Made by a program: the position numbers and the translations under genes. Positions 7,832 to 59,679 of a stretch of 64,000 nt of DNA are shown here, piece by piece. The notes beneath the pieces are model-generated. The model made no database searches, had not been told where the DNA came from, and saw nothing but the letters and a program-made list of their open reading frames with translations. Positions within the stretch are counted from its first letter, which is position 1, and each line of letters opens with the position of its first letter. The stretch is from Kiloniellales bacterium (GTDB taxonomy: Bacteria; Pseudomonadota; Alphaproteobacteria; Kiloniellales; JAKSBE01): assembly GCA_030066685.1 (NCBI GenBank), contig JASJBF010000002.1:225847-289846 (forward strand), in the 5' to 3' direction.

Positions 7832-8161
7832 TTACAGGCCGTCCGGCTTCTCGATCACCAGGATGCGGGCCTCGCCCAGGGGATGGGCGACGTGCTCGTC
7901 GCCGGCTTCTGCGAAGCAGACATCGCCGGCCGCCAAGTGCTGCGCCTTCTCGATCCCGGCTTCCCGGTAGTGCATCTCGACTAGATAACTGAGTGCGCCC
8001 GAGACCGCGGCGCCATCTTTGACGTATGGGTCGCAGGGTTTGTCGACGAGAAGCGCTCTTAGGCGACTTCCCGCAATCAGCAGCTTTCCGGGCGTTCTGA
8101 ATTCACATTCGTTCCACAGGCCTCTAGTGGAGCACCAATCTGCTGGGGAATTAACCTTCAC
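7832..8161 (-). CDS. small cupin-domain protein
   Basis: Motif GDVCFAEAGDEHVAHPLGEARILVIE fits cupin motif 2 (GD..x..G..H..H). GC drops across the N-terminal part of the gene. Confidence 0.5.
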   Translation of the reverse strand: MKVNSPADWCSTRGLWNECEFRTPGKLLIAGSRLRALLVDKPCDPYVKDGAAVSGALSYLVEMHYREAGIEKAQHLAAGDVCFAEAGDEHVAHPLGEARILVIEKPDGL

Positions 8162-8201
8162 TTAACCATAACTAATTATCACCTTTTATCTGTCACGTCT
8201 A

Positions 8202-9242
8202 ATGGGTCATTCAAGAGCATGGCCTCTTCCAATGCTGCCGGTTGATTGGTGCAAGATGAAACTTCAGAAAGATGGCGATGCAAGCGATTTCGGCGTCGAC
8301 GGGGGCGCTGGCAAAACAGAAGCAAGGCTTCATCGGAAACTCGGACGCTACGTCCTGATAAGTTTACTGGAAGGCCAAAAATCCAGTCGTTTGGCAACAA
8401 TAACTCTTGGAATGTTGCTTCCGGTCATTGTATCGGGATGCAGTTTAGTGAACTCGAATAAGCTAATGCGTGCAGATGCATACGTCACGCAAGGTTCAGC
8501 CCAGATCAAAGATGGAAAAGTAAAAGACCCTATCAATCTGGACTCTTTCAAGTTTAATGTTGGGGATACGGAGTCAGCTTACTCAAAGGCATCGAAAGCA
8601 CAAAATGGTGTCGACCGGAACCGTCTGCAGAGCTTCCTGCTTCGCCTTTCCGACGTGAACTGTGCTCGATATGTCGACGACATGTATGCCAGGGTCGCGG
8701 CCAGAAAGGTCGTGCTGAAGTCAATTACCCTTTTATCGGGTAGCGCAGCTGCTGTCGTGTCGGGAGAGCTGGCAAAAAGTGTCCTTGGTGCCGTTAGCGC
8801 CGTCGCAACAGGTACCGACGCGATCCTGGACGCCGAGATATTGCAGAACCAGGTAATTACACTGGTGGCTACCCAAATAAATGCACAGCGCGCATCTATC
8901 GCTGCAGAAATTCGACGAAAACGTGAAGAGGCTGATCAGCAGGGGAACCAATCACTGGTAACTTATTCCCTGGAAGGCGCAATCCATGACGTCGATCGAT
9001 ATCATCAAGCTTGTGGATTCCTGCCGGCAATTGTAGAGCTGACCAAGGAGTCCCAAAGGGTCAGGGTTACAAAGGCTTCACTTGATGCGGAGCGCGGTAA
9101 ATTAATGAAGGAGAAGGACGATATTGACACAAGGATCCGGAATCAAACAAATCAAAATATACTAAAGATCGAAAATAGAAGGCTTGAGCAAATCGGTCGT
9201 AGGTTGGAAGAGATCGACATCCTGCTCAGGGTTGCGGAGTAA
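8202..9242 (+). CDS. ORFan lipoprotein/membrane protein with a C-terminal coiled coil, in an AT-rich island
   Basis: Hydrophobic segment with lipobox-like LPVIVSGCS. C-terminal heptad-rich region ..DAERGKLMKEKDDIDTRIRNQTNQNILKIENRRLEQIGRRLEEI. Local GC about 45% against a 66% background. Start codon uncertain. Confidence 0.45.
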   Translation: MGHSRAWPLPMLPVDWCKMKLQKDGDASDFGVDGGAGKTEARLHRKLGRYVLISLLEGQKSSRLATITLGMLLPVIVSGCSLVNSNKLMRADAYVTQGSAQIKDGKVKDPINLDSFKFNVGDTESAYSKASKAQNGVDRNRLQSFLLRLSDVNCARYVDDMYARVAARKVVLKSITLLSGSAAAVVSGELAKSVLGAVSAVATGTDAILDAEILQNQVITLVATQINAQRASIAAEIRRKREEADQQGNQSLVTYSLEGAIHDVDRYHQACGFLPAIVELTKESQRVRVTKASLDAERGKLMKEKDDIDTRIRNQTNQNILKIENRRLEQIGRRLEEIDILLRVAE

Positions 9243-9555
9243 ATTGCTTCGCGATGTATTGTGTTGTCTGTAGAGATGTAGCAACGGTCCTTTGCGGAGT
9301 GAGCGTGGTCTCAGGACCGGAAGAATCTCGTGATCATAGTTTGGTAGATGGCAATGTACTGCCGGATCAGGCCCGAGCGGAATGCCGGCAGAAGCCAAGC
9401 GCCAGTCTCAAAGCGCTAACTGAGCTTCAATGAACCTGGAAACCAGTAGCGCCAAGTCGCATCCCTTGTATCGCAAGTCAAAGCCGGCGGGCCGGTTTGA
9501 TAAGTGGATGTGACATTCCTGCTATCTTTCACCTATTGCTCTTGAGGCCGTAGGA

Positions 9556-10680
9556 TCAGTCTTTGGTTGTTGGCGACAGCCGGGTCACGTGGCCCATCTT
9601 GCGCCCGGGCCGGGCCTCGGTCTTGCCGTAGAGGTGCAGCTTCTGGTTCCGGTCGCTCAACTGCGCGCGCCAGGCTTGCGCCTCGTCGCCCAGCAGGTTG
9701 CGCATCACGGCGTCCGAGTGGTGTTCGCTCGACCCCAGCGGCAGGCCCATCACCGCCCGGACGACCTGCTCGAACTGCGAGGTGACGCAGGCGTCCAGGG
9801 TCCAGTGGCCGGAATTGTGCGGCCGCGGGGCCAGCTCGTTGACCAGGACCTCGCCGTCCTCGGTGACGAACATCTCCACGGCGAGCAGGCCGACCAGGTC
9901 GAGCGCCTCGGCGAGTCGCCGGGCGGTCGCCTCGGCCCGCTCGGCGACCAGGGCGTTGGTCCGCGCCGGCGCGATGGTGGTGCGCAGGATGTGGCTTTCG
10001 TGCTGGTTCTCGACCGGCGGGTAGTCGGCCATCTCGCCGTCCAGCCCGCGGGCGACGATTACCGAGACCTCCAGCTTGAAGTCGACGAAGGCCTCCAGGA
10101 TGCCCTGCGCCTCCGGATTGCCGCCGGCCATCTGGGCCCAGGCCGCGGCCGGATCGCTCTCCGCCTCCAGGCGCACCTGGCCCTTGCCGTCGTAGCCCAG
10201 CCTGGTGGTCTTGAGCACCGCCGGGGTGCCGAAGTCGCGCAGGTGGCGGGCCAGCGCCTCGGGGCCGTCGATGGCGGCGTAGCGGGCCGTCGCAATCCCC
10301 TGGTTGCCGCAGAAGTCCTTTTCGCGCAGCCGGTCCTGGCAGATCGCAAGGACCTCGGCGCCGGGCCGCACGGCGACCGAACGGGCCAGGATCTCAACGG
10401 TCCGCAGCGGAATGTTCTCGAATTCGAAGGTGACCACGTCGACCGCCTTTGCGAAGGCGGCCAGCGCCGCCTCGTCGTCGTAGGCGGCCCGGGTGAACAG
10501 CGGGGTCACCTGGCTGGCCGGGCAGTCCGCCTCGGGGCAGTAGATGTGGCTGCGATAGCCCAGGGCCGCCGCCGCCAGGGCGGTCATGCGGCCGAGCTGG
10601 CCGCCGCCCAGGATGCCCAGGGTCGCGCCGGGGGCCAGAGGGGCGGGCGCAGGCTCGGTCATGCTCGGGTCCTCAGGCAT
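9556..10680 (-). CDS. purK: N5-carboxyaminoimidazole ribonucleotide synthase
   Basis: ATP-grasp protein; [29 protein letters not shown] match PurK. Overlaps purE by 8 nt. Confidence 0.92.
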
Positions 10681-30443: not shown

Positions 30444-30900
30444 TCGCCTCTCTCGCCGGCAAGAAATCGCCGGGCGCAACATTTGAACTCTTCCCCAGTA
30501 TTATTGGAACAATTCTGTCTTTTTCTGGCTTGGATCCGATTCTGTCTTGAACCGGATTCGGCTCCGGCCTATAACCCGCGTCCGCCCGGACGACGGGCGG
30601 CCTTTGCAAGCAGTGGAAACGGCAATGACGCAAGAGTCATTCAACGAAAGCCGGCCATCAGGGCCGGAGGACACCAGGGCCTGACCCGGGCGTTTCCGCT
30701 CGTGTCTTGCCCGAGAGCGATCGACGAGAAAGGGCGAGACACATGAGACAATCCATCATGACATAGGCGAAAAGCCGGCACCCTTCGCTAGGTGACCGGG
30801 CTTCATTCCTTTGGTCATTTCCTCCGTGGTCCGGGCTCCGAAGGCCCGGCCGGCGCGCCCGGCGTCCGTAATGCGCCCCGCGTGTATCGAGTTTGACCGT

Positions 30901-30973
30901 GCCGATGTAGCTCAGTGGGAGAGCGCCGGGCGCGAGCGCCCGGAGGTCGCGGGTTCGAGTCCCGTCATCGGAA
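30901..30973 (+). tRNA. tRNA-like gene with a non-canonical anticodon arm; identity undetermined, possibly a pseudogene
   Basis: Canonical D arm (GCTC-AGTGGGA-GAGC) and T arm (GCGGG-TTCGAGT-CCCGT), and a 6/7 paired acceptor stem. The anticodon arm is CCGGG-CGCGAGCG-CCCGG (8-nt loop) or a 6 bp stem with a 6-nt loop. There is no U at position 33 and a G1-A72 mismatch. Confidence 0.5.
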
Positions 30974-30974
30974 C

Positions 30975-31047
30975 CCGAATGTAGCTCAGTGGGTAGAGCA
31001 CTGGACTGATAATCCAGGAGTCGAGGGTTCGATTCCCTCCATTCCGC
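30975..31047 (+). tRNA. tRNA-Ile (anticodon GAU)
   Basis: Cloverleaf: acceptor CCGAATG/CATTCCG (C2-C71 mismatch), D arm GCTC-AGTGGGTA-GAGC, anticodon arm CTGGA-CTGATAA-TCCAG, T arm GAGGG-TTCGATT-CCCTC. It starts 1 nt after the preceding tRNA-like gene. Confidence 0.75.
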
Positions 31048-51693: not shown

Positions 51694-52098
51694 TTGCCCG
51701 ATCAGCAGACAGTGGTGGCGTTCTTCGACAGCACCTACGAGGAAGCCCTGGGCCTGGCCTGCGAGCTCCGGGATCGCATCGCGGCCAAGGGCGGCGAGGG
51801 CCGGCCCGAGCCCGAGGACTACCATGCCCGCCTCTACGGCAGCTGCGAATGCCTTCGCATGACCGCCCGCCTGACCCAGGTGATCGCTTGGTTCCTCGTT
51901 CAAAAGGCGGTTCACGCGGGCGAGCTGAGTCGGGAGGAGGCCAGGGCGAAGCACCGCCGGCTCGGCGGTCAGGCGGTCTGCAATCCGGATCGTGAGCTCA
52001 AGGATGCCGGCCTGCCGCCGGTGCTCGCCGATCTGCAGCGGCGCACGGGCGAACTCTACGCCCGCGTGGCGCGTCTGGATTCCATGATGAACGGGTGA
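51694..52098 (+). CDS. DUF1465-family protein
   Basis: TTG start. ..TYEEALGLACELRDRIA..SCECLRMTARLTQVIAWFLVQKAVHAGEL is recalled as the DUF1465 pattern. Confidence 0.6.
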   Translation: MPDQQTVVAFFDSTYEEALGLACELRDRIAAKGGEGRPEPEDYHARLYGSCECLRMTARLTQVIAWFLVQKAVHAGELSREEARAKHRRLGGQAVCNPDRELKDAGLPPVLADLQRRTGELYARVARLDSMMNG

Positions 52099-55616: not shown

Positions 55617-56876
55617 CTAACGCTGGGTGAACTTCAGCTCGATGCGGCGGTTGCGGCGGAAGGCGACTTCGTCGCTGCCGCTGTCGATCGGCTGGAACTC
55701 GCCGAAGCCGGTGGCGGCCAGGCGCCGTGCCGGCACGCCCTCGCCGATGAGGAAGCGCACGACGGAGATCGCACGGGCGGTCGACAGCTCCCAGTTCGAG
55801 GGGAACTCCGCGGTCGATATCGGGCGCCGGTCGGTGTGGCCGTCGACCCGCAGCACCCAATCGATCTCGTCCGGGATCTCGCGGGCGATCTCGTTAAGGG
55901 TGTTGGCCAGGCGCGCCATCTGGACCCTGCCGCCCGAGCCGAGCGCGGCCGAGCCCGACCCGAAAAGAATCTCCGACTGGAAGACGAATCGGTCGCCGAC
56001 CACCTGGATATCCGGCCGCTCCCCCAGGACCTGGCGCAGCCGGCCGAAGAACTCCGAGCGGTAGCGCGCAAGCTCCTGGACCTTGGTCGCCAGGGCGACG
56101 TTGAGCCGGCGGCCGAGATCGGCGATCTGCACCTCCTGCTCCTTGTTCTTGGCTTCGCTCAGATCCAGCGCCTCGCTGAGCTGGGACAGCTGCTGGCGTA
56201 GTGCCAGGATCTGCCGGTTGAGCAGCTCGGCCGCCACCTGGGCCTCCTCGGTCAGGCTCTCCTGCTCGGACAGGCGGCCGGCCAGCCTCTCCTTCTCTTC
56301 CGCGGCCGAATCCAGCTCGCCCTGGGACGCCGCCAGCTGCGCGCGCAGGTCGTCCCTCAGGCTCTTAAGGATCGCCAGCTCGGCAAGCTGCGCCTCGATC
56401 TTCTCCTTGTCGGCCTCGATGGTCTTGTAGGCGTCTTCCAGCTGCCCGCTGACCTGGGAGCTCGAGGAGACCGCCTCGTCGAGCCGGGCCGAGAGGTCGT
56501 CGCGCTCCCGGGTCAGGAGCGAGAGCTGGTCTTTCAGCCGGTCGCGCTCCTCGGTCAGACCGGAGAGCTGGCTGCTGAGGCTCTCGCGCGCGGTCAGAGA
56601 GGTGTTCAGCTCCTCGGAGACCTCGTTGAAGTCGCTCTGCAGCCGGAAGCTCTCGGCCCGTTCCAGGGCCAGCAGCTCGCCCAGCTCGGCGACCTGGCGT
56701 TGCAGCCGCTCCAGGGCGGCGTCGCGGCCCGAGAGGGCGGTCGACAGGAAGTACTGTGCGATCATGAAGACCATGAGGACGAAGATCACCACCAGAAGCA
56801 GGGTGGAGAGCGCGTCGACAAAGCCGGGCCAGATGTTGACCGACCGCTGGCGGCCCCGGCGTTCCAGCGCGAACAT
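55617..56876 (-). CDS. MotB-like protein: transmembrane helix, roughly 230 aa coiled coil, and C-terminal OmpA/MotB peptidoglycan-binding domain
   Basis: N-terminus WPGFVDALSTLLLVVIFVLMV (MotB plug/TM type). C-terminus ..RVDGHTDRRPIS..SNWELSTARAISVVRFLI..NRRIELKF (OmpA-like). The start overlaps the upstream gene's stop. Confidence 0.8.
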   Translation of the reverse strand: MFALERRGRQRSVNIWPGFVDALSTLLLVVIFVLMVFMIAQYFLSTALSGRDAALERLQRQVAELGELLALERAESFRLQSDFNEVSEELNTSLTARESLSSQLSGLTEERDRLKDQLSLLTRERDDLSARLDEAVSSSSQVSGQLEDAYKTIEADKEKIEAQLAELAILKSLRDDLRAQLAASQGELDSAAEEKERLAGRLSEQESLTEEAQVAAELLNRQILALRQQLSQLSEALDLSEAKNKEQEVQIADLGRRLNVALATKVQELARYRSEFFGRLRQVLGERPDIQVVGDRFVFQSEILFGSGSAALGSGGRVQMARLANTLNEIAREIPDEIDWVLRVDGHTDRRPISTAEFPSNWELSTARAISVVRFLIGEGVPARRLAATGFGEFQPIDSGSDEVAFRRNRRIELKFTQR

Positions 56877-56879
56877 CGC

Positions 56880-58049
56880 CTAGCGGGCCTCCGTGTCCTC
56901 GGCCAGGGCGGCGATGGTGCGGGCCAGGAGGCGAATCTCGCTGCGGATCTCCTCGACCGCCTTGTTGCGGCCGCTGGCGGCTTCCTGCACGAGGCGGCCC
57001 ATGTGATGATCGAGGTTGCGCAGGTGGTCGCGGCTGGCGTCGTCCAGGCCGCCGACCCGCGTGCCGTTGACCTCGGCCAGCTGGGACAGCACTGGGCGCA
57101 GCTGGGCCTGGCTCTCGGCCAGGCGGGTCAGGATCGACTGCTCGCTGCGCAGCTGGTCGGTCAGGGTGCCCAGGCGCTCGGCCAGGACCTCGAGGCTGTG
57201 GTCCATGTTGAGCCGGCTCTCCTCGGACTTGGCCATGGTCCGCTGGAGCGAATCCAGGCTGTCGGCGGTCTGCTCGAGCAGCGCCTGGATAAAGGCCGGC
57301 ACCGGCTGGTCGCCGTCGGCCAGGGGTCCGCCGCCGGTCAGACGCGTGACCTCGGAGAGCCACTCCTCAAGCTCGTTGACGAAGCGGTTGTGAGCCTGGG
57401 CGGCCTGCAGCTCGAGGAATCCCAGGATCAGCGAGCCGGCGAGCCCGAAGAGCGAGGAGCTGAACGCCGTGCCCATGCCGGACAAAGGGGTCTCCAGGCC
57501 CTGCTTCAACTGGTCGAACATCGCCGTGGCGTCACCGGTGCCGCCGCTGAGGCCTGAGATCGTCGCACCGACCGCGCCAACGGTCTCCAGCAGCCCCCAG
57601 AAGGTGCCCAGCAGGCCCAGGAAGATCAGCAGGCCGATCAAGTAGCGGGACATGTCGTGGGATTCGCTGATCCGGCTCTGGATGCCGTCGAGCAGCGAGC
57701 GCATGGACAGCGCCGAAAGCCGGATCCGCCCGGTGCGCTCGCCCATCATGGTGACCATGGGGCCGAGCAGCTTGGGCGGCCGCTCATCGCTGGCCGCGCC
57801 CGGCATGACCAGGCTGCCGCTCTTCTCGCGGATCAGGCGTTGCAGCCAGTTGACCTCAGGGTTCAGCGCAATGACCTGCCGGAGGCTGTAGCCGATGCCG
57901 AACAGCAGGACGCCCAGGATCACCCCGTTAAGCACGGCATTCGCGCTGAAGGCTTCCTGGAGGCGGGGGTAGAGAACCGCGCAGATGGCGCCCACCACCA
58001 GCAAGAAGATCGCCATTCGGGTAAGGTAGCGGTAGGGCCGAGTGATCAT
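56880..58049 (-). CDS. MotA/TolQ/ExbB-family proton-channel protein with a roughly 140 aa C-terminal coiled-coil extension
   Basis: Hallmark LGLLGTFWGLL plus ..GMGTAFSSSLFGLAGSLILGF..; four transmembrane helices. Confidence 0.8.
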   Translation of the reverse strand: MITRPYRYLTRMAIFLLVVGAICAVLYPRLQEAFSANAVLNGVILGVLLFGIGYSLRQVIALNPEVNWLQRLIREKSGSLVMPGAASDERPPKLLGPMVTMMGERTGRIRLSALSMRSLLDGIQSRISESHDMSRYLIGLLIFLGLLGTFWGLLETVGAVGATISGLSGGTGDATAMFDQLKQGLETPLSGMGTAFSSSLFGLAGSLILGFLELQAAQAHNRFVNELEEWLSEVTRLTGGGPLADGDQPVPAFIQALLEQTADSLDSLQRTMAKSEESRLNMDHSLEVLAERLGTLTDQLRSEQSILTRLAESQAQLRPVLSQLAEVNGTRVGGLDDASRDHLRNLDHHMGRLVQEAASGRNKAVEEIRSEIRLLARTIAALAEDTEAR

Positions 58050-58329
58050 GTCTTTTCAGGCTTTGGCAGCTTCCAGATGGGTTCGGCGCCGGAGATCCCT
58101 GAGGCGACGGCCGGTGCCGCGAGAAGGCACGGCAATAGACGATGGCGCGCCCGACGACTCGGCGCCAAGGAAAGGATAGCAGATTCGGTCCGAGGAAAGG
58201 CCTCCAGAAACTTCAAGCCCCTTCCCTTGTTCACAAGGCGTCAGCCTGCCGACGCAGTGCGGCAGAACTGTGGCGCCTTCCCGCGGCAGCACCAGCCCAT
58301 CGCCTGGATAGACTGGCGCCGAAGCGGGT

Positions 58330-59679
58330 CTATTGGGACACGAGTTCGTAGTCGATCCGCTCCGCCGGACCGTCGGTCGACTGGTCCCCGAGGGGTCGCA
58401 GAAAGACCTTCTTGGCTTTGACGCCCCGCCTCTCCAGATAGCCTCGGGCGACCAGGCCTCGGTTCAAGGACATCCGCCGCGGGTCCCGGCCGGTCGCGTA
58501 GGCGCGGAACTCGACGCCCTCGGCCTCGGCGGCGAGCAGGCGTTCGGCCAGGCCGTCCAGCACGGCGCGCGCCTCGGCTGAGAGCTCCGTCGAACCGGCC
58601 TCGAAGAGGATCCGTCCCTCCAGGGGTACACCGGCCGGCGGTCGGGTCGCCACCTGTGGCTCGCCCACCCTTGGCTCATCGGGCTTCGAAGCGACGGCCC
58701 CGAGCCGTTCTTCCGGATCGGGGGCGGGCGCGGCCGGAGGCGCCTTTGTTGCCTGGACGGCTTTGGCGGTCGTCTCCGCGGCGACGGCGGGCGGGACCGG
58801 CGGCTCCGGCACCGGCGGTGCGGTGATCCTGCCGGGCCGCGGCGCCTGGGGCTCGGCGGCTTCGGCCAGCTCGTTCAGGATCGCAGCCGGGGCGGGCTGG
58901 GCGCCGACCGAGTCGGCGGGCGCCTCGACGGCCGGCGGCGGCAGGGCCGTGGGCGGCGGCTCCGGGGGCGCGGCCTTTGGCAAAGCTGCCTGGACGGCAG
59001 GAACCTCGATTTCGCCGAGGTCCTCCAGGGGCAGCGGTGCCGGGGCCGGCACCTCGAGGTCCGCAGCCTCCGGCGGGGGGGCATCTGCGGTCGCTTCGGC
59101 AATCGGAGCCGATGCTTCAGGCGGGGGCGTGTCTTCGATCAGGGCCGAACGGGCGATCGGTGCAGAACTGACAGCGGGCCTTGCAGGCCGCGGCGGGACA
59201 TCGCGCGGCTTGACGACATCGCGCGGCTTGACCACCGCCGGCTCGCTGGGGCGGCCGCGAGAGCGCGCGCCCTCGATCGCTTCGAGCTCCGAGGTCAGGA
59301 CACTCGGGGCCGGGGGCGCCTGTGCCGGCTGGGCCGGCCCGACCTGGCCAAGGGGCACGACGTAGAGGCGGCTCTCCAACTGCCAGGGCGGGGGCGTCTG
59401 CAGCGGCGCGCGTGGCTGCCGTTGGCTGCTTGGACCCGGGGTCGGCGGGTCCTTCTCGAGGCGCTCCAGAAGCCTGGTGTTGATGTAGACGTCGGGCGGC
59501 TCGGCCGGAGCGCCGCCGTCCTGGGCCAGGGCCGGCAGCGAGACCGGCGTCGACAGCAGGACCGTGAGCAGAAGCGCTCTTGCGGTTCGGGCGAAACGGC
59601 CGGAGCCGGGGGCGCGCCTCCTGGCTCCTTCACCGGCCCGCTCCGGCCGCCCTTTCCCCGGTCCTGCACGCTTCGGCAT
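58330..59679 (-). CDS. proline-rich periplasmic protein with a C-terminal OmpA-like domain
   Basis: Signal peptide, a roughly 300 aa Pro/Ala/Glu-rich low-complexity region, then ..ILFEAGSTELSAEARAVLDGLAERL..EFRAYATG.. Confidence 0.7.
   Translation of the reverse strand: MPKRAGPGKGRPERAGEGARRRAPGSGRFARTARALLLTVLLSTPVSLPALAQDGGAPAEPPDVYINTRLLERLEKDPPTPGPSSQRQPRAPLQTPPPWQLESRLYVVPLGQVGPAQPAQAPPAPSVLTSELEAIEGARSRGRPSEPAVVKPRDVVKPRDVPPRPARPAVSSAPIARSALIEDTPPPEASAPIAEATADAPPPEAADLEVPAPAPLPLEDLGEIEVPAVQAALPKAAPPEPPPTALPPPAVEAPADSVGAQPAPAAILNELAEAAEPQAPRPGRITAPPVPEPPVPPAVAAETTAKAVQATKAPPAAPAPDPEERLGAVASKPDEPRVGEPQVATRPPAGVPLEGRILFEAGSTELSAEARAVLDGLAERLLAAEAEGVEFRAYATGRDPRRMSLNRGLVARGYLERRGVKAKKVFLRPLGDQSTDGPAERIDYELVSQ

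Follow-up and report, generated by a model that had tools for sequence, protein, structure and literature searches.

A core alphaproteobacterial gene pair most likely encoding a proton-driven membrane motor with closest kinship to Zorya

We analyzed a 64,000-nucleotide stretch (the window) of contig JASJBF010000002.1 from a Kiloniellales bacterium, in which a stator-like gene pair, A and B, is preceded by a gene for a proline-rich protein, U. The locus most likely belongs to a widespread alphaproteobacterial family that builds a proton-driven membrane motor, kin to the flagellar stators and to the Tol and Ton motors, and closest to Zorya. It is somewhat probable, in our judgment, that this motor is a housekeeping machine of the alphaproteobacterial envelope, inherited vertically and based on an ion-driven unit of the ZorAB/MotAB type. 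The genes are already known as sequences (B as PRK09039, A mislabelled as MotA), but not as a system. In the open-access literature no paper was found that names or characterizes this family, the work on Komagataeibacter 'motAB' aside. In a recent survey, non-flagellar homologues are treated as a heterogeneous set of 'generic ion transporters', and the architecture described here is absent from that survey (PMC12505986). The three genes, taken from the listing of open reading frames (ORFs), with product lengths in amino acids (aa), are the following.

58330-59679, minus strand: upstream gene U, 449 aa; secreted, proline-rich protein with a C-terminal OmpA-like domain
56880-58049, minus strand: gene of the A subunit, 389 aa; channel protein of the MotA/TolQ/ExbB/ZorA fold
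55617-56876, minus strand: gene of the B subunit, 419 aa; MotB-like protein of the NCBIfam PRK09039 'peptidoglycan-binding protein' family

The ORF listing thus recovered all three co-directional minus-strand genes of a preliminary description that had been made from the sequence. That description had also claimed translational coupling of the last two genes. The stop codon TAG of A and the start codon ATG of B are separated by 3 nucleotides (nt), and GGAGG lies within the 3' end of A, so that close coupling of A and B is plausible. The gap between U and A in the window is 280 nt. The guanine-plus-cytosine (GC) content of the locus, 0.68-0.72, is in line with that of the remaining window, and no CtrA box (TTAA-N7-TTAA) was found near the locus.

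The pair had initially been called an orphan. This label proved misleading, as the pair represents a core syntenic alphaproteobacterial family and B already has the NCBIfam equivalog PRK09039. At E<=1e-30 the A family comprises 553 clusters at 50% identity, and a pattern scan with one genome per GTDB species yielded matches in at least 600 species genomes. The best 80 of these at least 600 loci come from Kiloniellales, Rhodospirillales, Azospirillum, Thalassospira, Defluviicoccus, Acetobacteraceae, and Hyphomicrobiales; the family was confirmed in Rhizobiaceae (Sinorhizobium, Shinella), Rhodospirillales, Kiloniellales, and Acetobacteraceae. Adjacency and synteny were counted in a set of 82 loci fetched by homology to A. 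In all 82 of them B is the next gene after A, usually 3-25 nt downstream. The gene order EF-P, IMPase, (U), A, B, convergent ABC exporter, L31, DUF1465, Hsp20 is found in many loci, from Kiloniellales to Sinorhizobium. The identity of A drops in parallel with the identity of the neighbour genes, as vertical descent predicts. The A/B module is vertically inherited, chromosomal, and core.

Canonical partner genes had been reported as missing, and this observation is confirmed. Within about 8 kb on each side of the locus, the neighbours are TPM, LemA, Hsp20, DUF1465, L31, the ABC exporter, an esterase, IMPase, EF-P, a cupin, and GAPDH; none of the Pfam-assigned neighbours in this range is a flagellar, Tol, Ton, gliding, or Zorya effector gene. 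Genes for TolB, Pal, CpoB, and TonB-dependent receptors are likewise absent near the locus. The search for an adjacent ZorC- or ZorD-like gene, proposed as a check of the initial interpretation, found none, and no Zorya-related gene is among the window neighbours found repeatedly in the 82 related loci. Among 85 loci, A and B are located next to flagellar hook genes in one organism only.

The assignment of A to the MotA/TolQ/ExbB/ZorA superfamily is indicated by several lines of evidence. A has the characteristic helical transmembrane (TM) fold; a protein identical to A is also on record from a Kiloniellales metagenome-assembled genome. The polar or glycine-rich track that the superfamily has in its last two TM helices is represented by GLLGTFWGL and PLxGMGTAFS, both invariant in A, and the adjacent B carries an invariant TM Asp. 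The AlphaFold2 (AF2) model of A, based on 44 diverse homologues, has a predicted local distance difference test (pLDDT) score of 85.7 and contains four TM helices followed by helices 252-330 and 337-388. A MotA/ExbB-like channel protein with a C-terminal coiled coil of about 140 aa had been proposed; the AF2 helices span about 137 aa, and the segment FLGLLGTFWGLL is present. The loop between TM2 and TM3 is about 75 aa long (residues 61-135); apart from the parts by which TM2 and TM3 extend into it, the AF2 model has only two short helices there. Two further parts of A are the following.

57405-57641, minus strand: A residues 137-215, TM3-loop-TM4 core (from alignments)
56883-57404, minus strand: A residues 216-389, helical tail, predicted to be cytoplasmic, with EIRSEIRLLARTIAALAE at its end (from AF2 helices, periodicity, and homologues)

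Residues G145, G148, T149, G152, P188, M192, F196, and G202, which cluster in TM3 and TM4, are invariant in alignments of A. The tail of about 170 aa has a hydrophobic periodicity of 3.5-3.6 residues, above that of shuffled sequences. The motif at its tip, EIRSEIRLLARTIAALAE, is present in 79 of the 82 A homologues and has been lost in Rhizobiaceae. The length of A is constant in the family at about 380 aa, unlike that of the B stalk, which is variable.

Comparison with known families places the pair outside TolQR and flagellar MotAB, in agreement with the initial interpretation: the NCBIfam models for MotA, PomA, TolQ, and ExbB do not match A (for MotA, there is no match at E<=0.1), and the Pfam MotA_ExbB match is below its threshold. 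The closest relative is ZorA. In a Foldseek search with the A model, the top match was ZorA 8vvn (type I, Shewanella) at 20-21% identity; TolQ and ExbB came next, and MotA and PomA ranked lower. The sole stator found by the full-length A profile in the PDB was again ZorA 8vvn (E=7.8e-5). The PADLOC ZorA1 profile matches A with E=2.5e-14 over profile positions 108-287 of 683, which cover TM3, TM4, and the start of the tail. The NCBIfam model ZorA_2 gives 24 bits versus a cut-off of 100. As far as sequence comparison and the structural model indicate, A has the fold of the A subunit of 5:2 motors and constitutes a divergent clade of its own, for which ZorA is by a small margin the nearest relative. 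Because the nearest solved relative of A is ZorA, the tail of A is best seen as a short tail of the Zorya type.

The B subunit scores 475.2 bits against NCBIfam NF006543 (the PRK09039 equivalog; cut-off 305) and is also above the cut-offs of the sister models NF006544 and NF006545. A MotB-like protein with a TM helix, a long coiled coil, and an OmpA domain had been anticipated. In agreement with this, B comprises a heptad stalk of about 240 aa and an OmpA domain recognized by Pfam with E=1.5e-14, and its parts are as follows.

56748-56831, minus strand: B residues 16-43, TM helix WPGFVDALSTLLLVVIFVLMVFMIAQYF with invariant Asp21 (from motif search and alignment)
56025-56744, minus strand: B residues 45-284, periplasmic heptad coiled-coil stalk (from AF2, periodicity, and length classes)
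55620-56009, minus strand: B residues 290-419, MotB-type OmpA-like predicted peptidoglycan-binding domain with GHTD and LSTARA (from Pfam and PDB profile)

The TM helix contains WPGFVDALSTLL, in which D is Asp21; the motif WPGFVD is present in all 81 B sequences (the window and 80 ORFs from the loci), and Asp21 is invariant in the alignment. We take the position of Asp21 to match that of the proton-binding Asp of MotB-type proteins. For the C-terminal domain, the best PDB matches are MotS 9ljk (E=6.4e-22) and MotB 6ysf (E=1e-20), and both GHTD and LSTARA (LSxxRA) are conserved in the alignment. The PADLOC ZorB3 profile also matches B (E=1e-24), mostly over this domain. In the AF2 model a single helix that includes the TM segment spans residues 17-185; it is followed by a low-confidence break, helix 204-284, and an alpha/beta domain. 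The stalk has a periodicity of 3.50 residues, and its a/d positions are 70% hydrophobic, versus 37% overall. The coiled-coil architecture had been described as unlike that of canonical stators, and an unusual double coiled coil, formed by the A tail and the B stalk, is indeed present.

The stalk of B changes its length in steps of the heptad, which is a new observation. We measured it from the TM Asp to the conserved YRSEFF located just before the peptidoglycan-binding domain in 185 B homologues, in which its length ranges from 167 to 728 residues. Taken modulo 7, these lengths concentrate in one class, which accounts for 152 of the 185 sequences and for 26 of the 49 distinct lengths; among the 67 B sequences derived from the loci, 46 belong to it. 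No other modulus shows comparable clustering. Lengths commonly step by 7, 21, or 35 residues. The spacing between YRSEFF and GHTD is 74 residues in 185/185 sequences. Since the steps include odd multiples of 7, the stalk appears to be a continuous parallel coiled coil, and a hairpin-folded stalk is unlikely for the same reason. At about 0.15 nm per residue, a straight stalk would measure about 25-108 nm across the family and 37 nm in the window B.

The third gene encodes the proline-rich OmpA-domain protein of the preliminary description, an identification that holds at the level of the family. U contains 18% Pro, and a proline-rich linker of about 280 aa lies between an N-terminal motif and the C-terminal domain.

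59524-59679, minus strand: U residues 1-52, predicted Sec signal peptide (read by eye from its basic N-region, hydrophobic core, and ALA|QD site)
59458-59490, minus strand: U residues 64-74, VYINTRLLERL, conserved motif near the mature N-terminus (from homologue comparison)
58333-58647, minus strand: U residues 345-449, OmpA-like domain (from family profile versus the PDB and PF00691)

The AxA|Q pattern is likewise found in U homologues. The consensus of the N-terminal motif is V-x-V-D/N-x-S-V-L-D-x-L; a strict regular expression finds it in 19 homologues, and similar variants occur in most others. The motif may have a docking role. The window U scores 18.9-23 bits against Pfam PF00691, versus a gathering threshold of 27.2, while all 29 of its 29 homologous C-terminal domains match PF00691 (best E=1.6e-16). 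The family profile of the domain finds YiaD, MotY, YfiB, and Pal in the PDB, with E-values from 2.2e-10 to about 1e-5. The domain is thus predicted to have an OmpA-like fold. Peptidoglycan binding is uncertain, because the Asp of the canonical GHTD is replaced (AYA-x-G), though the arginine helix R-R-L-S-L-S-R-A is kept.

U homologues are encoded directly upstream of A in about 50 of the 82 loci, and several overlap the A start by 4 nt. U is missing in Rhizobiaceae and some other lineages, where IMPase is directly upstream of A. Thus, U is a recurrent yet dispensable third member. No association was found between the presence of U and the tip motif of the A tail. The length of the U linker and that of the B stalk have a Pearson r of 0.48, which is driven by one outlier; the Spearman coefficient is 0.25 and is not significant.

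Comparison with known ion-driven systems shows that the family works most like ZorAB, and yet it falls outside Zorya in its effectors, tail length, and distribution. The features shared with type I ZorAB (8vvn, 8qyd) are the TM fold of A, for which ZorA is the closest by sequence (16-21% identity), a helical coiled-coil tail after the last TM helix of A, and a B subunit combining an N-terminal TM Asp with an OmpA-like predicted peptidoglycan-binding domain. In contrast to Zorya, the A tail has about 170 aa rather than hundreds of residues, whereas B has a coiled coil of 170-730 aa (ZorB profiles and chains have 215-293 positions overall). The ZorC/D/E effectors are absent, an extra secreted OmpA-like partner, U, is present, and instead of a mobile defence island there is a core, syntenic locus.

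Other members of the superfamily share fewer of these features. With MotAB, PomAB, and MotPS the family has in common the four-TM A subunit, whose TM2-TM3 loop and C-terminal tail are predicted to be cytoplasmic by analogy with MotA, the TM Asp of B, a post-TM segment at the expected site of a plug, the MotB-type domain, and adjacent, closely coupled genes. It differs from them in the lack of a MotA model match, in a B stalk many times longer, and in the lack of a flagellar gene context. Moreover, the cytoplasmic loop of A is too small for the FliG-binding torque interface of MotAB (PMC12505986). A proline-rich periplasmic protein encoded alongside and a plausible housekeeping role in the envelope are reminiscent of TolQR-TolA-Pal and ExbBD-TonB, but B is not ExbD/TolR-like, and U appears to be secreted, not anchored in the motor. 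GldLM and PorLM are also motors of the 5:2 type, in which the B-like subunit has a long periplasmic extension. GldM has a dimeric extension that differs from a coiled coil with a terminal peptidoglycan-binding domain, and GldM is believed to rotate. GldL is not among the fold matches of A, and type IX secretion genes are absent from the locus.

By analogy with these systems, the mechanism of a housekeeping envelope machine can be outlined. An A pentamer would form a ring around a B dimer in the inner membrane, as the fold and knowledge of the family suggest. Protons would pass via Asp21 of B and the polar track of A TM3/TM4 (T149), all of which are conserved. B would be held to the peptidoglycan by its MotB-type domain atop the parallel coiled-coil stalk of about 240 aa. 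With B fixed, the proton flow would turn the A ring together with its cytoplasmic tails of about 170 aa, as was proposed for ZorA, and the conserved tail tip could be a coupling site for a partner encoded outside the locus. In most non-rhizobial lineages, U would be co-transcribed and probably helps to anchor or position the periplasmic part, as suggested by the conserved adjacency.

The physiological role of the machine is most likely the maintenance of the cell envelope, the division site, or the pole, and not motility, nutrient uptake, or phage defence. Such a role is suggested by the housekeeping synteny and by the work on Komagataeibacter hansenii. This non-flagellated bacterium has adjacent 'motA' and 'motB' genes, whose products have 348 and 321 aa (PMC6570709, PMC6315621); its MotA has four TM helices, and its MotB has one TM helix and an OmpA domain (PMC6570709). 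Overexpression of motA/motB resulted in elongated, chained cells, and GFP fusions were polar or bipolar (PMC6570709). Disruptions of these genes were viable and altered the cellulose texture (PMC7347698). Jacek et al. (2018-2019) take motA and motB as motility genes (PMC6570709, PMC6315621). As judged from sizes, topology, and BLAST partners, the K. hansenii proteins probably belong to the same family as the window genes; a search begun with an Acetobacteraceae homologue yielded closer relatives only. Papers on Mesorhizobium motA and on Azospirillum FlcA do not specify the paralogue studied.

Several observations weigh against the reading of the locus as a housekeeping proton-driven motor of the envelope. 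Pfam PF01618 (MotA_ExbB) gives only 14.9 bits on A, versus a gathering threshold of 22.9 (E=0.022), and precomputed matches to PF01618 are present in occasional A homologues only. The profile of the TM core of A finds nothing significant in the PDB, so the placement of A among the motors rests on the fold, the PADLOC profiles, and the region from TM3 into the tail. The periplasm is estimated to be about 20-35 nm wide. As the stalk can be longer than that, a perpendicular geometry in which it simply reaches up to the wall fails. The A tail has no known cytoplasmic partner. In Rhizobiaceae both U and the tail-tip motif are absent, and thus neither is essential to the core function. The K. hansenii evidence consists of overexpression phenotypes, and its proteins are only probable members of the family; localization of its MotB also needs caution, since the fusion bore GFP at the C-terminal, predicted periplasmic end.

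Among the alternatives to a housekeeping machine of the ZorAB/MotAB type, the one deserving most attention, though it seems unlikely, is a Tol/Ton-like periplasmic force transducer, in which the motor energises U or the B stalk to pull on or remodel the peptidoglycan and the outer-membrane attachments. The TolQ-like fold of A agrees with this scenario, as does U, which is proline-rich like TonB, has a globular C-terminal domain, is conserved, and is tightly coupled to A in many lineages. The authors of the K. hansenii study also noted that the chained, elongated overexpression cells resemble those seen on tolQR overexpression (PMC6570709). However, B is of the MotB type with an OmpA domain and not of the ExbD/TolR type. 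U has the AxA|Q signal-peptide pattern and no membrane anchor of the TonB/TolA type, and hence it could not sit in the A ring as TonB and TolA do. It is, moreover, absent in Rhizobiaceae and other lineages, and a transducer of this kind would leave the conserved cytoplasmic tail of A without a role. Another alternative is a passive tether between the inner membrane and the peptidoglycan, or a periplasmic scaffold, whose motor activity has been lost. We consider this tether improbable. A coiled coil of such great and variable length would suit it, as would a weak crescentin-like (Rod_CreS) match in Pfam on a B homologue, but Asp21 of B and G148, T149, and P188 of A do not vary even between distant members, whose pairwise identity is about 35%, and such invariance of proton-relay-type residues argues for a retained channel function.

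Public annotations ('flagellar motor protein MotA', 'chemotaxis protein MotB') imply instead an accessory or alternative flagellar stator, a role that we regard as distinctly improbable. It agrees with the peptidoglycan-binding domain of B, which is closest to MotS/MotB, and with the one distant organism in which fliK, flgD, and flgE are found about 0.9 kb away from the pair (loci L084/L085). Among the 85 loci, this adjacency is nevertheless confined to that organism, the synteny being with housekeeping genes, and in all fold and profile comparisons MotA and PomA, whose NCBIfam models do not match A, rank under ZorA, TolQ, and ExbB. The torque interface of flagellar stators comprises four or five helices (PMC12505986), whereas the TM2-TM3 loop of A has the two short ones described above. 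The family also appears to be present in the non-flagellated Komagataeibacter, if its proteins are indeed members (PMC6570709). Least probable of all, and in our opinion very improbable, is a minimal anti-phage system of the Zorya type, that is, ZorAB without linked effectors. The best matches in the defence library are PADLOC ZorA1/ZorA3 and ZorB1/ZorB3, among solved structures ZorA comes closest by sequence (16-21% identity in structural alignments), and A has a coiled-coil tail like that of ZorA. On the other hand, the PADLOC match is limited to the part of the profile given above, genes similar to ZorC, ZorD, and ZorE are not adjacent, and the tail of about 170 aa contrasts with ZorA profiles and chains of about 680-1060 aa in total. 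Defence systems are expected to be patchy and island-borne in their distribution, while this locus is core, syntenic across orders, and host-like in GC content.

An output has been assigned to five kinds of 5:2 ion-driven motors, namely those of the flagellum, Ton, Tol, gliding/type IX secretion, and Zorya. The family would add another one, distinguished by a ZorA-like tail together with a secreted partner and a very long stalk anchored in peptidoglycan. As a tractable relative outside defence, it lends itself to studying how tails of the ZorA type transmit rotation, and the heptad-stepped series of stalks is natural material on how stalk length matters. The analysis also corrects the names flagellar MotA and chemotaxis MotB, under which these genes are widely annotated. 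To our knowledge, Alphaproteobacteria lack Braun's lipoprotein; if the role of the family is maintenance of the envelope or of division, it bears on the coupling of envelope layers in this class. A more speculative, rather unlikely extension sees in the family a housekeeping counterpart of the Zorya sensor module, perhaps even its evolutionary origin. A proton-driven rotary unit, plugged in its normal state, would monitor the mechanical link of inner membrane and wall through its long, rigid, heptad-tuned stalk; by turning its short ZorA-like tail, whose conserved tip would engage a partner, it would relay this information to the cytoplasm. If true, this would define a new class of mechanosensing or envelope-surveillance motors present in most Alphaproteobacteria.

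Some loci of the family deviate from the common arrangement. In L084/L085 (3303-10171; 37% identity), the genes fliK, flgD, and flgE are divergent from A-B, and a DUF456 gene lies between. In L083 (6333-9006), an A homologue with 34% identity is followed by genes for a soluble protein with an MCP-signal-like domain and a STAS-domain protein, without a MotB-like B; the same kind of A subunit may here have a different set of partners. The Rhizobiaceae loci L001 (7932-10069, Sinorhizobium meliloti CP090106) and L002 have no U, a shorter A tail, and no tip motif; the S. meliloti orthologues are LZK74_31000 and LZK74_30995. The record CP090106 is labelled plasmid pSymB, yet it has 3.7 Mb and core genes, and is probably a mislabelled chromosome. 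Only in the window and in its closest relatives, L003 and L004, is the otherwise conserved junction of B with the ABC exporter interrupted by an esterase-family gene (PF00756; 54465-55472, minus strand). The DUF1465 (PF07323) gene at 51694-52098 on the plus strand is a member of the conserved neighbourhood. We take DUF1465 to be the family to which RcdA belongs, an adaptor for the degradation of CtrA in Caulobacter, and CC3295 is presumably rcdA. CC3295 (169 aa) is listed as an alpha-specific signature protein (PMC1182365).

Elsewhere in the window, two tRNA-like genes abut with zero spacer at 30900-31047 on the plus strand. The second is tRNA-Ile(GAT); the first scores 53.9 bits with the Rfam tRNA model and is left unassigned by ARAGORN, which reports a four-base anticodon 'cgag' in an odd loop. 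The sole low-GC stretch of the window, 8001-10000 (0.55 versus about 0.68), adjoins purK. It contains an ORF at 8202-9242 on the plus strand, whose product of 346 aa has a hydrophobic segment and a Lys/Glu-rich helical C-terminus. Just upstream of this ORF, at 8151-8165, lies a perfect CtrA-box-like TTAA-N7-TTAA, the sole exact one in the window.

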